Source: a virus (Duplodnaviria > Heunggongvirae > Uroviricota > Caudoviricetes). From it: a stretch of DNA of 4,464 bases. The DNA lies in the IMG/VR virus record IMGVR_UViG_2706794698_000005; one strand, 5' to 3'. This document shows, in pieces, positions 168 to 3,269 of this stretch (its first letter is position 1; every line of letters starts with the position of its first letter). Position numbers and translations under genes: made by a program. The notes beneath the pieces were generated by a model. That model was not told the DNA's origin. It made no database searches and saw nothing but the letters and a program-made list of their open reading frames with translations.

Positions 168-1520
168 ATGACAACACCAGTCTGGCGTAATGATGACCTG
201 GAAGGCGCTGTCATTGGCGCATTCTTTCTGCGTGGGGCAGATCATGAAGTGATGGATATTCTGATCACACTACCGGCGGACATTTTTTCTGTACGAGCGT
301 ATCGGGATATCTACACAGGCATCTGCAGACAGGCCCGTGTTTCAGGAGTGATTGACCCCGTGCTGTTGTGTAATGAGATGCCGGAACTTGCCCCGGTGAT
401 TACTGATACCGGGCGTAAAACCTGGGTGAAGTCTTCACTGGAGCACTATGTTGCAGCGTTGCGGCGCAATGCCGCACTGCGCGATGCAGAAAAAACACTG
501 AATGAGGCGCTGCAGAAATTACGTGATGCGCATACCTGTGAAGCAGCTGAAGATGCCCTGAAGGATGCGCAGAACATGATGGTCACACTGTCGACAGGAA
601 AGGGCGTCATTCAGCCGGTACATATTGATGATGTGCTTCCGGAAGTGGTTGAGCGTGTTGAATGCCGGAATCAGGGGCTGGAGAAATCCAGGACGTTGAT
701 GACCGGTATTGATGAACTGGACGCAAAAACAGGCGGTATGGAGCCCGGAGACCTGGTATTCATTGCCGCCCGTCCTTCGATGGGGAAAACCGAACTTGCG
801 CTGGACATCATCGACAAGGTGACTGAGCAGGGGCATGGTGTGCTTCTGTTCACCATGGAGATGGCGAACATCCAGATTGGTGAACGTATGGTGTCTGCGG
901 CTGGAGGGATGCCAGTATCACGCCTGAAATCTGTGGCTCACTTTGAAGATGAAGACTGGGCGCGTTTCTCACAAGGGGTGGGGCGGATGACCGGGCGCAA
1001 TATCTGGATGGTGGACCAGGCGAACCTGACCATTGATGAGATATGCGCAACAACGAAACACCATCTGATTAAACATCCGGAAACGGCGCTGGTGGTGGTT
1101 GATTATCTCGGGCTGATAAAAACCCGAACCACGGGGCGTCATGACCTTGCCGTGGGTGAAATCTCAAAGGGGCTTAAAGGCCTGGCAAAATCCGGTGGTT
1201 TTCCGTTGATTGCGCTGAGCCAGCTCTCCCGCGGTGTGGAGTCCAGACATGGAGCGTTTCTTTTGAACAACCAGACAATGACTTTTACCTCTGAACAATT
1301 GCGTAAACACGCGCAGGAAATGTTGCGACAGGCGGAACAACTGGAAAAAACAGGTGTAACAAAAGATGCCATTCGTCGGGATATGGTGCCAGCGCTCAGG
1401 GAACTGATGCAGGCGAAACATCGCGCACAAAAAGCGGTGGATGAGCTCGTTGATTGTGTGGCAGAGCTGGAAACCAAAGTTGGAAAGTTTGAAAAAATGG
1501 TGCAGGAGGTGCTGCGCTGA
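168..1520 (+). CDS. DnaB-family replicative DNA helicase (phage-type), with a non-canonical C-terminal tail
   Basis: Long open frame. ATG at 168 is preceded by GAGGTG (155-160) at 7 nt spacing. Translation shows a DnaB N-domain-like region (LEGAVIGAFFL...), Walker A (GDLVFIAARPSMGKTE), an H1a-like FTMEMANIQIGERM, Walker B-like ALVVVDYLGLIK and motif H3 (IALSQLSRG). After about nt 1254 the protein no longer resembles the DnaB H4/arginine-finger region. The upstream in-frame extension to the GTG at 27 has odd composition and no RBS, so the start is placed at 168. Confidence 0.8.
   Translation: MTTPVWRNDDLEGAVIGAFFLRGADHEVMDILITLPADIFSVRAYRDIYTGICRQARVSGVIDPVLLCNEMPELAPVITDTGRKTWVKSSLEHYVAALRRNAALRDAEKTLNEALQKLRDAHTCEAAEDALKDAQNMMVTLSTGKGVIQPVHIDDVLPEVVERVECRNQGLEKSRTLMTGIDELDAKTGGMEPGDLVFIAARPSMGKTELALDIIDKVTEQGHGVLLFTMEMANIQIGERMVSAAGGMPVSRLKSVAHFEDEDWARFSQGVGRMTGRNIWMVDQANLTIDEICATTKHHLIKHPETALVVVDYLGLIKTRTTGRHDLAVGEISKGLKGLAKSGGFPLIALSQLSRGVESRHGAFLLNNQTMTFTSEQLRKHAQEMLRQAEQLEKTGVTKDAIRRDMVPALRELMQAKHRAQKAVDELVDCVAELETKVGKFEKMVQEVLR
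1088..1095 (+). other. Chi octamer 5'-GCTGGTGG-3' (RecBCD recombination hotspot motif), inside the helicase gene
   Basis: Exact match to the E. coli Chi sequence, read directly at 1088-1095. Confidence 0.6.
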
Positions 1521-1891
1521 TGCGCCATGAGTTTATTTTACCTTATCCGCCGACGGTGAATACTTACTGGCGACGTCGTGGCAGCACATATTTTGTATCA
1601 AAAGTTGGTGAGCGTTATCGCCGTGATGTGACGCTAATTGTTCGCCAGCAGCGGCTGAAATTAAACCTGTCCGGAAGGCTGGCGATAAAGATTATTGCAG
1701 AGCCACCGGATAAGCGCCGTCGTGACCTGGACAATATCCTGAAAGCACCACTGGATGCGCTGACGCATGCCGGACTACTCATAGACGACGAGCAGTTTGA
1801 TGAAATCAATATTGTGCGCGGTCAGCTCGTTCCTGGTGGGCGACTGGGCGTGAAGATTTATGAAATCACAGGTGATAACGATGGCGCGTGA
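1520..1891 (+). CDS. rusA: RusA-family Holliday junction resolvase (crossover junction endodeoxyribonuclease)
   Basis: 123-aa ORF. AGGAGG (1505-1510) sits 9 nt upstream of the ATG, and the start overlaps the helicase stop (TGATG), suggesting translational coupling. The product has the RusA signature [12 protein letters not shown] and the acidic cluster [10 protein letters not shown]...LIDDEQ that matches the conserved catalytic Asp residues of RusA. Confidence 0.9.
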
Positions 1892-2267
1892 TATTCAGCA
1901 GGTTATGGAACGGTGGGGGGCTTGGGCTGCAAACACTCATGAAGATGTATCCTGGGCGTCGATCGCTGCTGGTTTTAAAGGGTTAATTCCGTCGAAAGTG
2001 AAATCACGCCCTCAGTGTTCTGATGATGATGCAATGATAATTTGTGGCTGTATGGCCCGGTTGAACAAGAAAAATCAGGATTTGCACGATTTGCTGGTGG
2101 ATTATTACGTAGGTGGAATGACTTTTATGAGTCTGGCACGGAAACATGGGTGTTCGGATACCTGTATTGGCAAGCGCCTGCAGAAAGCGGAAGGGGTTAT
2201 TGATGGCATGTTGATGATGCTTGATATCCGGCTGGAGATGGACAGATACGTAGAACGAATTATGTAG
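1881..2267 (+). CDS. Q: Late-gene antitermination protein Q (small Q family, resembling the E. coli DLP12 QuuD type)
   Basis: 128-aa ORF ([35 protein letters not shown]...[16 protein letters not shown]...[18 protein letters not shown]...DIRLEMD). This matches the small cysteine-rich Q antiterminator family as I recall it. AGGTGA (1870-1875) lies 5 nt before the ATG at 1881. The alternative upstream ATG at 1860 has no RBS. The gene overlaps the rusA stop by 11 nt. A PR'-like promoter follows immediately, which is the canonical Q context. Confidence 0.85.
2093..2100 (+). other. Chi octamer 5'-GCTGGTGG-3', inside the Q gene
   Basis: Exact match read at 2093-2100. It has the same orientation as the site at 1088. 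Confidence 0.6.
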
Positions 2268-2271
2268 GTGC

Positions 2272-2301
2272 TTGACCAGACACATTGTCCGGGGCTATAT
2301 T
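2272..2301 (+). promoter_or_regulatory. PR'-like sigma70 late promoter (TTGACC, 18-bp spacer, TATATT)
   Basis: -35 TTGACC at 2272-2277 and -10 TATATT at 2296-2301, starting 5 nt after the Q stop codon. This is the position of PR' in lambdoid phages. The predicted start is near 2308, followed by a hairpin at 2309-2326 (CGCCAG / CTGGCG). Confidence 0.5.
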
Positions 2302-2362
2302 CCTCACGCGCCAGCAAAATCTGGCGTCGGGATTGGAACCCCGGATAGAGACCGCGACAGAC

Positions 2363-2386
2363 ACACGCCGCGAGCGTGTTTTTTAT
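2363..2386 (+). terminator. Intrinsic terminator (tR'-like) ending a short late leader transcript
   Basis: GC-rich 6-bp stem ACACGC (2363-2368) / GCGTGT (2374-2379) with a 5-nt loop, followed by TTTTTATT. It lies about 75 nt downstream of the predicted PR' start, comparable to the short 6S-type leader RNA of lambdoid late operons. Confidence 0.5.
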
Positions 2387-2512
2387 TGTCGTATGCACGC
2401 GCACATCTGAATTATGGTGGGGCGCATGGGGGAGCTGAAAAGCTCGCCGGTCGGTTTCCCGGTAGTTCCAACCCTGTGCGTCTCACCACCCGATGATTGG
2501 AACCTGACGGTG

Positions 2513-2541
2513 TTGACAGTTTCAGGTTTGCAGTTTACATT
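2513..2541 (+). promoter_or_regulatory. Candidate second sigma70 promoter (TTGACA, 17-bp spacer, TACATT)
   Basis: Perfect -35 hexamer TTGACA at 2513-2518 and a 4/6 -10 TACATT at 2536-2541. It points toward the masked block and the Rha-like gene. Confidence 0.3.
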
Positions 2542-2576
2542 TCCCCGCGGTGCTCAAAACACCTCGAAAGCGGTAT

Positions 2577-2604
2577 CCACACCCGATAGCCATGTGGTTT
2601 TTTT
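2577..2604 (+). terminator. Candidate intrinsic terminator or attenuator (weak stem plus T7 run)
   Basis: 5-bp stem CCACA (2577-2581) / TGTGG (2593-2597) with an 11-nt loop, followed by TTTTTTT (2598-2604). The stem is weak, so this is uncertain. Confidence 0.3.
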
Positions 2605-2646
2605 GTGTCCAGAATTCTTGGTTTATGACCGGGTGTGCGGCTAATA

Positions 2647-2904
2647 NNNNNNNNNNNNNNNNNNNNNNNNNNNNNNNNNNNNNNNNNNNNNNNNNNNNNN
2701 NNNNNNNNNNNNNNNNNNNNNNNNNNNNNNNNNNNNNNNNNNNNNNNNNNNNNNNNNNNNNNNNNNNNNNNNNNNNNNNNNNNNNNNNNNNNNNNNNNNN
2801 NNNNNNNNNNNNNNNNNNNNNNNNNNNNNNNNNNNNNNNNNNNNNNNNNNNNNNNNNNNNNNNNNNNNNNNNNNNNNNNNNNNNNNNNNNNNNNNNNNNN
2901 NNNN
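2647..2904. other. N-masked block (258 nt), content unreadable
   Basis: Run of n characters. It hides the 5' end of the Rha-like ORF and any upstream signals. Confidence 1.
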
Positions 2905-3269
2905 GAAGGTAAACATTTTTTCCTGATAGAAGGTGATGCGTTACGAGAGTTGAAGAACGAAAACTCTTTAAGAGTTTCTGTGAAAATTGCCCGTAACGTT
3001 CGCTCCCTCATCCTCTGGACAGAACGTGGCGCAGCCCGTCACGCCAAAATGCTCGAAACCGATCAGGCGTGGGAAGTGTTCGAAAAACTGGAAGACTGTT
3101 ATTTCAACCAGAAACAGCCACCAGCGGCACAAAACACATCTATCGAAAATGATGGATGCGCATTACTGAGCCACTTCGATAAACACGGTCAGGTTGAGTT
3201 CACGGAAAAGGTACCCGCCGATGCGATGGTATGTACTCTGGAACGGTTTAAATTTTATCTGGAGCAACA
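2905..3269 (+). CDS. Internal fragment of a Rha/ORF6N-family phage regulatory (antirepressor-like) protein; both ends masked
   Basis: 121 stop-free codons in + frame 1, bounded by Ns on both sides. The segment WTERGAARHAKMLETDQAWEVFEKLEDCYFNQ resembles the C-terminal signature of Rha/ORF6N DNA-binding domains as I remember it (for example ...TRDGFTLLAMGFTGKKALDFKVRYINAFNQ). The family assignment is from memory, not from a search. Confidence 0.5.
3118..3125 (-). other. Chi octamer on the minus strand (CCACCAGC on +), inside the Rha-like ORF
   Basis: Exact reverse complement of GCTGGTGG read at 3118-3125. Confidence 0.55.

Follow-up and report, generated by a model that had tools for sequence, protein, structure and literature searches.

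Chi sites in a Shigella-type prophage remnant as a probable local sample of the Chi enrichment of phiP27-type lambdoid phages

In this analysis we consider the octamer Chi, GCTGGTGG, in a 4,464-nucleotide stretch of tailed-phage DNA (IMG/VR record IMGVR_UViG_2706794698_000005), hereafter the window, and in the prophage lineage from which it comes. An exact search of both strands found three matches only, one each in the genes for a DnaB-type helicase, a Q-family antiterminator and an ORF6N-domain protein, as a previous sequence-only reading of the window had reported. The octamer is the one that enteric RecBCD is established to read (PMC13181404). By exact-protein look-up, the window is the entire 4464-bp draft contig CWUY01000293.1 (GCA_001260435.1), runs of N included, and its host is Shigella sonnei or E. 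coli, as judged by identity to CP022457.1, the chromosome of S. sonnei 2015C-3566 (PMC6456863). This is one of eight complete chromosomes of 4.8-5.0 Mb, rich in insertion sequences (ISs), whose loci (L006-L013) are 100% identical to the window save for a 293-bp deletion and two gaps. The RusA protein of the window is present in thousands of assemblies.

In the twin chromosomes the element is a phiP27-like prophage remnant of about 10 kb, with ISs at both ends. Its gene order begins with an IS3-family element, the helicase, an 85-aa open reading frame (ORF), RusA, Q and ORF6N, and continues with tRNA Ile-Arg-Thr-Gly, holin, lysozyme, Rz, HNH, TerS, TerL and a portal gene truncated by an IS4 element. 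No integrase, repressor, replication initiator, head or tail genes were found among the remnant genes in the twin loci, so that phage DNA cannot be made. The two N runs of the window (2647-2904 and 3270-3561) stand in the public record as scaffold gaps of incorrect length: in the twin loci, 258 N correspond to 245 nt and 292 N to 255 nt. The eight complete loci show that a fourth, plus-strand Chi is missing from the window at the second gap (L007 11926-11933, approximately window 3495-3502), in intergenic DNA 56 nt upstream of tRNA-Ile. A promoter-like sequence, TTGCAG-17-TATTAT, is located immediately upstream of this tRNA. The features of the window are collected in Table 1.

Table 1. Chi sites, genes and gap located in the window (window coordinates)
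Feature	Position	Strand	Context or evidence
DnaB-type replicative helicase	168..1520	+	Pfam DnaB_C 1.6e-46
Chi 1	1088-1095	+	within DnaB-type helicase gene; codons gcG-CTG-GTG-Gtg = A-L-V-V
RusA Holliday-junction resolvase	1520..1891	+	Pfam RusA 7.5e-15
Q-family late antiterminator, carries Chi 2	1881..2267	+	Pfam Phage_antitermQ 2.2e-52
Chi 2	2093-2100	+	within Q antiterminator gene; codons ttG-CTG-GTG-Gat = L-L-V-D
ORF6N-domain (antirepressor-like) gene, readable middle part, carries Chi 3 antisense	2905..3269	+	weak Pfam ORF6N match
Chi 3	3118-3125	-	antisense in ORF6N-domain gene; + strand CCA-CCA-GCg = P-P-A
Second scaffold gap	3270..3561	.	real 255 nt in twins: ORF6N gene end, terminator, fourth Chi, tRNA-Ile start
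tRNA-Arg(TCT), tRNA-Thr(TGT), tRNA-Gly(TCC) cluster	3629..3861	+	ARAGORN, Rfam

The three visible sites differ in how well they are kept among relatives. Chi 1, whose frame can be read directly, codes for the strand preceding the Walker-B Asp of the helicase and is found in 18 of 20 distinct homologous segments; in the Stx1 phage 14040 it is abolished by a synonymous change, GCG to GCA. Chi 2 is a minority allele, present in 4 of 18 homologous segments, and the closest relative, the intact prophage L002, features at this position a synonymous Leu codon, TTG instead of CTG, which turns the octamer into GTTGGTGG. Chi 3 is shared by 7 of 10 homologous segments. As Chi-less synonymous variants occur at sites 1 and 2, the octamer is not required by the proteins, and single Chi sites come and go through synonymous changes.

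With respect to composition, the window is rich in Chi: its dinucleotide-preserving shuffles contain 0.19 sites on average, and none of 200 contained at least three. The Markov expectation climbs with the order of the model, being 0.15 at order 1, 0.35 at order 2 and 0.66 at order 3. When the hidden fourth site is included, the count rises to 4 (3 plus, 1 minus) in 4.7 kb, with P = 0.020 against the density of the host, and a synonymous-codon shuffle of the unmasked window predicts 1.68 sites (P = 0.026). The background figures on which the sequence-only reading had relied are correct, since there is no Chi in the 48.5 kb of lambda and there are 1008, about 1 per 4.6 kb, in E. coli K-12 (PMC12315714).

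That reading had proposed a prophage-wide count as the check on which its claim should stand or fall. The count yields 6-7 sites in the 10-kb remnant, 4 plus and 2 minus (3 minus in L007), or about 1 per 1.4-1.7 kb. The Shiga toxin 2e (Stx2e) phage phiP27, 94% identical over the helicase module, carries 17 (12 plus, 5 minus) in 42.6 kb, 1 per 2.5 kb; L002, the intact yecE prophage of E. coli UR21/11-869, 92.9% identical to the window over 64-2412, carries 16 (11 plus, 5 minus) in 34.5 kb, 1 per 2.2 kb. The claim thus survives its own check: Chi density in the remnant and its intact relatives is 2-3 times that of the host (Poisson P = 0.007-0.024 for the remnant, 0.014 for phiP27 and 0.005 for L002), and in all three Chi ranks first among the octamers, both strands combined. 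The Stx1 phage 14040 has 8 plus and 2 minus sites in 49.6 kb (1 per 5.0 kb), and VL40, a Gam+ Rac-like prophage sharing the tRNA module only, has 2 plus and no minus sites in 40 kb (1 per 20 kb). In 14040 (L004, an Stx1a phage), 8 of the 10 sites fall within 5.3 kb (7901-13167), in the early-right operon of antirepressor and replication genes. On a wider scale, 137 IMG/VR lambdoid loci, collected around the linker sequence described below, contain 707 further Chi in 1238 kb, 1 per 1.75 kb.

The enrichment was evaluated against a genome-wide synonymous-codon shuffle, in which protein sequences, codon usage and intergenic DNA are all held fixed. Expected numbers are 6.35 for phiP27, 4.1 for L002 and 2.3 for the remnant (observed 7); none of 2000 shuffles matched the observed total in either phiP27 or L002, and for the remnant P = 0.001. 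Chi is therefore 2.7-3.9 times more frequent than this null predicts, and about 7 times more frequent than the octamers differing from it at one position. The mean over the 24 one-mismatch neighbours is 2.5 in phiP27 (maximum 7), 2.5 in L002 and 1.0 in the remnant. In lambda and in the Gam+ VL40 prophage Chi is rarer than its neighbours (0 versus 3.0 and 2 versus 3.0, respectively).

The sites are also unevenly placed on the phage map. The remnant retains the lambdoid order of helicase, RusA, Q, (tRNAs), lysis genes, cos and terminase, and the full layout is present in L002 and phiP27. Aligned with phiP27, in which cos is annotated, the window falls 1.7-6.4 kb left of the cos position inferred in this way, at the right end of the virion map; its plus strand is the strand called "top", with the 3' end at the right end of that map. 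The start of the late region is marked by the tRNA cluster, with some 0.75 kb between the cluster and the end of the window and about 2.3 kb between it and the inferred cos to its right. The segment from origin to cos makes up 24-27% of the genome and holds 10 of the 17 Chi of phiP27 (P = 0.006) and 8 of the 16 of L002 (P = 0.02). A bottom-strand Chi is found in the HNH gene (L007 14317-14324, minus strand), about 0.3 kb from the inferred cos; it is kept in every one of the 14 distinct HNH homologues, of which the most divergent is 78% identical. Its codons, C-CAC-CAG-C, encode His-Gln, and its conservation may reflect protein constraint rather than selection for Chi.

The sequence-only reading had also noted that two of the three visible sites are on the plus strand; this orientation is not evidence in its own right. 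Nearly all genes lie on the plus strand and Chi is most easily encoded in sense, as G-CTG-GTG-G, so that a plus bias of about 3:1 is expected anyway, and the codon-preserving null already produces it: 4.8 plus to 1.5 minus are expected in phiP27, where 12 to 5 are observed, and 3.6 to 0.5 in L002, where 11 to 5 are observed. The bottom-strand sites cluster in the early-right and late-control region, at 9692, 10183, 16751, 16948 and 21519 in phiP27 (L003) and at 16087, 18076, 23125, 24720 and 26157 in L002. It might be speculated that they protect rolling-circle tails running the opposite way.

No recombinase, exonuclease, SSB or anti-RecBCD PHROG match was found among the early-left ORFs of phiP27 and L002. 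Similarly, tblastn searches with lambda Exo, Bet, Gam, Orf and Rap and with Rac RecE and Gam gave no match in L002, phiP27, phage 14040 or the remnant. The sole recombination gene in the window encodes the RusA junction resolvase, which we infer to act downstream of joints made by RecA.

Phages of this kind have been described. In the statistical study by Bobay, Touchon and Rocha (PLoS Genet 2013, PMC3784561), lambdoids lacking a recombination (Rec) module over-represent Chi, concentrated from the origin to the packaging site, and phages carrying Gam or Abc2 avoid it. Zheng et al. (2025, PMC12315714) report that phages with no Rec module are rich in Chi, with top-strand sites clustered at the right end, that Chi is the top octamer of both LLS and P1, that codon usage does not explain it, and that RecBCD improves the growth of LLS. 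In their model, once cos has been cut, the left end is covered by terminase and RecBCD enters the free right end; top-strand Chi, met from the 3' side, then induce recombination, yielding concatemers for packaging.

The remnant and its relatives resemble LLS and the no-Rec class of Zheng et al. in lambdoid gene order, in having Chi as top octamer and in density (about 1 per 1.4-2.5 kb); the relatives also share the clustering near cos, and a top-strand majority that is no larger than gene orientation predicts, and the intact ones are without Gam, Bet, Exo or any other Rec-module homologue. They differ from LLS, whose top:bottom ratio is 20:3, in showing only a modest ratio (remnant 4:2-3, phiP27 12:5); moreover, the copy considered here is non-viable and has lost its early-left region, and the terminase and head genes are of the phiP27/HK97 type, with an HNH gene. 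As in the lambdoids of Bobay et al. with neither Rec module nor inhibitor (Rec-/Inh-), Chi exceeds what composition predicts and gathers in the segment between origin and packaging site, which the window covers; that study dealt with 275 genomes, did not analyse strand and did not single out this element.

Other systems are instructive by comparison. The chi+ mutants of lambda red gam (Lam 1974, Henderson and Weil 1975, Kobayashi 1982; cited in PMC12315714) feature the same octamer and the same rule of orientation with respect to cos, by which RecBCD coming in from the right end reads top-strand Chi, but there Chi arose by laboratory mutation in a phage normally devoid of it, whose Gam inhibits RecBCD, whereas here the sites are natural and multiple. 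P1, with 50 Chi in 94.8 kb (about 1 per 1.9 kb), is likewise temperate, has no RecBCD inhibitor and has Chi as top octamer; it requires RecBCD and RecA (PMC12315714). Unlike the lineage of the window, P1 is not lambdoid, and its Chi serve the recombination of terminal repeats for circularisation (PMC12315714). The Chi of the E. coli and Shigella chromosomes are the identical octamer, and those of the remnant can now act only like them; chromosomal Chi, however, occur at 1 per 4.6 kb with a leading-strand bias, whereas the prophage sites are 2-3 times denser and follow the phage map.

Taken together, these data indicate that the sites in the window are genuine Chi and that they probably sample, locally, an enrichment that is specific to the octamer and extends over the lineage, of the type found in lambdoids devoid of both a Rec module and a RecBCD inhibitor. 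By analogy with the published class model, phages lacking a Rec module would need recombination by host RecBCD and RecA to make or preserve concatemeric DNA for packaging. RecBCD would enter at the free right-hand cos end, or at a rolling-circle tail, and degrade leftward until, on reaching a top-strand Chi from its 3' side, it would switch from nuclease to RecA loader; with several Chi in series from cos to origin, RecBCD would almost certainly recognise one before essential DNA was degraded. The Chi of the remnant are relics, because the remnant can neither replicate nor package, and only ordinary chromosomal Chi action is left to them. Protection of linear phage DNA, also suggested from the sequence alone, can thus be historical only, the IS-truncated remnant making no phage DNA.

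Several observations weigh against this interpretation. The early-left region of the remnant has been deleted by IS events, so that a lack of a Rec module is judged for it from the relatives only. At the host density, 0.85 sites are expected in the 3914 readable nt of the window and the Poisson probability of at least 3 is 0.055; for the window by itself the excess is marginal, and the window was selected post hoc. The plus-strand bias, which is 3:1 in the window once unmasked, 4:2-3 in the remnant, and 12:5 and 11:5 in phiP27 and L002, does not exceed the prediction from gene orientation, and minus-strand Chi are also enriched, 5 against 1.5 in phiP27 (P = 0.006) and 5 against 0.5 in L002 (P<0.00125), which is not explained by a simple model of right-end entry. 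The Stx1 phage 14040, which shares the helicase module, has only an average overall Chi density. Finally, the relatives and the IMG/VR loci are phylogenetically non-independent.

The marginal figures for the window could be read as the product of chance and codon usage, since G-CTG-GTG-G joins the commonest Leu and Val codons and a few Chi in 4 kb of E. coli-like coding DNA would then need no selection; Chi 1 would simply encode the hydrophobic strand ahead of the Walker-B Asp. Two of the three visible sites lie in exactly this sense frame, the third-order Markov expectation already reaches 0.66, and the codon shuffle of the unmasked window accounts for 1.68 of its 4 sites. Such an explanation seems unlikely to us when the larger sample is considered: the remnant and both intact relatives exceed a null in which proteins and codon usage are fixed (P<=0.001), and the exact octamer is far commoner than other xCTGGTGx octamers using the same codon pair, besides its sevenfold excess over one-mismatch neighbours. 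Lambda, moreover, is very similar to the Chi-rich LLS in amino-acid and codon usage, yet has no Chi (PMC12315714), and the Chi-less synonymous variants at sites 1 and 2 speak in the same direction.

The sequence-only reading attributed the density either to selection through a RecBCD-containing host or to long residence in it. Selection is retained here at the level of the lineage, whereas long residence is unsupported, because the same sites are found in phiP27 and in the intact E. coli prophage. A cryptic prophage acquiring Chi like the surrounding chromosome might well look as this one does, riddled with ISs and defective, and the Chi in the Q gene, a minority allele one synonymous base away from the closest relative, could be such a late gain. 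Amelioration is nonetheless quite improbable: Chi shared with phiP27 and/or intact L002, namely those in the helicase and ORF6N genes, the linker, HNH and orf60, predate the decay, the density is 2-3 times that of the host rather than equal to it, and the sequence identity of the remnant across several chromosomes suggests that little time has elapsed since. Alternatively, the sites may be kept to aid RecBCD repair of collapsed forks crossing the prophage, with an orientation set by the replichore and not by cos. Any exact chromosomal Chi is expected from established RecBCD biology to be active for the host, and both strands are enriched in the relatives. The enrichment, however, is above the host average, concentrated from origin to cos on the phage map, and also seen in phiP27, which is deposited as a phage genome with cos and att annotated, all of which makes a service to the host a very improbable reason for it.

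A separate question concerns the relation of Chi to the mosaic junctions of these phages. The fourth, hidden Chi ends a conserved linker of about 75 nt, made of a terminator hairpin, a spacer of about 40 nt and Chi, which is present in >120 IMG/VR lambdoid contigs and is located at 11821-11934 in L007, 15517-15629 in L003, 23251-23401 in L002 and 19890-19942 in L001. It adjoins 37 far-upstream and 6 downstream classes of sequence, and the homology between its tRNA-promoter version and its TTGCGRATAC version ends 1 nt 3' of Chi. One might propose that linker Chi are preferred start points for break-copy recombination by RecBCD and RecA, in which a 3' end generated at Chi would invade a different phage and be extended on that template, so that junctions where Q meets the late genes would be written exactly at Chi. 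On the sequence comparisons made here, this proposal seems quite improbable. The coincidence of Chi and homology end at the linker is anecdotal, and the linker Chi, intact in 80 of 91 elements collected with a Chi-blind pattern, is no better conserved than its flanks.

Similarly, the suggestion of the earlier reading that Chi promote exchange at the replication/late-control junction found no backing. No mosaic boundary falls on any of the three visible sites, the one boundary abutting a Chi being that at the hidden fourth site. In an all-against-all comparison of breakpoints at 161 loci, 68 ends had the predicted polarity and 124 the wrong one, with no polarity-specific association with Chi, in a set of ends dominated by a few non-independent sites. 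A pile-up of breakpoints 3' of Chi was thus rejected as support for Chi-promoted exchange. Were the break-copy proposal true, host Chi recognition would be a direct sculptor of lambdoid mosaicism.

Some further features of the contig deserve mention. Positions 1-63 are the end of an IS3-family element, which truncates the gene of a helicase loader, and phage homology starts from base 64. The helicase gene carries the 293-bp internal deletion, in its 3' part, with respect to all eight twins (junction 1248|1249; L007 9437-9729). The junction shows no microhomology, and the resulting in-frame fusion to the downstream 85-aa ORF gives a 450-aa product seen on no other contig; the deletion may be real or may stem from faulty assembly. 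In L006, L008 and L013 the helicase gene also contains a second IS, of 1263 bp, at 397-400, where 4 bp overlap. The ORF6N gene is full length in the twin loci, where it encodes 187 aa and the domain is called. No full-length match to the window was found in E. coli complete genomes, the best being that of 92.9% over 64-2412; the tRNA part alone reaches 99.8%, in a different, Gam+ Rac-like prophage.

Between Q and ORF6N, Rfam matches at gathering score were obtained for c4-a1b1 targets, the isrK Hfq-binding RNA, C4 antisense RNA and sRNA-Xcc1, at window 2295-2493 and 2627-2710 (L007 10776-10974 and 11108-11191). A PR'-like promoter (2272-2301) and a terminator (2363-2379) lie right before them. 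The interval resembles modules of the isrK/C4 type, with control of an antirepressor by an antisense RNA.

The motif, its enrichment, its location and the proposed mechanism have all been described already; the additions made here are phiP27-type phages as clear members of the class, and a Shigella remnant in which the signature of the class persists. Even a short, gap-ridden draft contig is recognisable as coming from a Chi-rich branch of lambdoids without a Rec module, and the Shigella remnant is a case of Chi sites with no remaining phage function. The Stx2e phage phiP27 and its relatives are clear examples of the class, with Chi as top octamer, about twice the density of the host, and clustering between origin and cos. 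If the class model is true, such phages, including those converting their hosts to Shiga-toxin production, would depend on host RecBCD for productive growth, and this predicted dependence bears on the induction of Stx phages.

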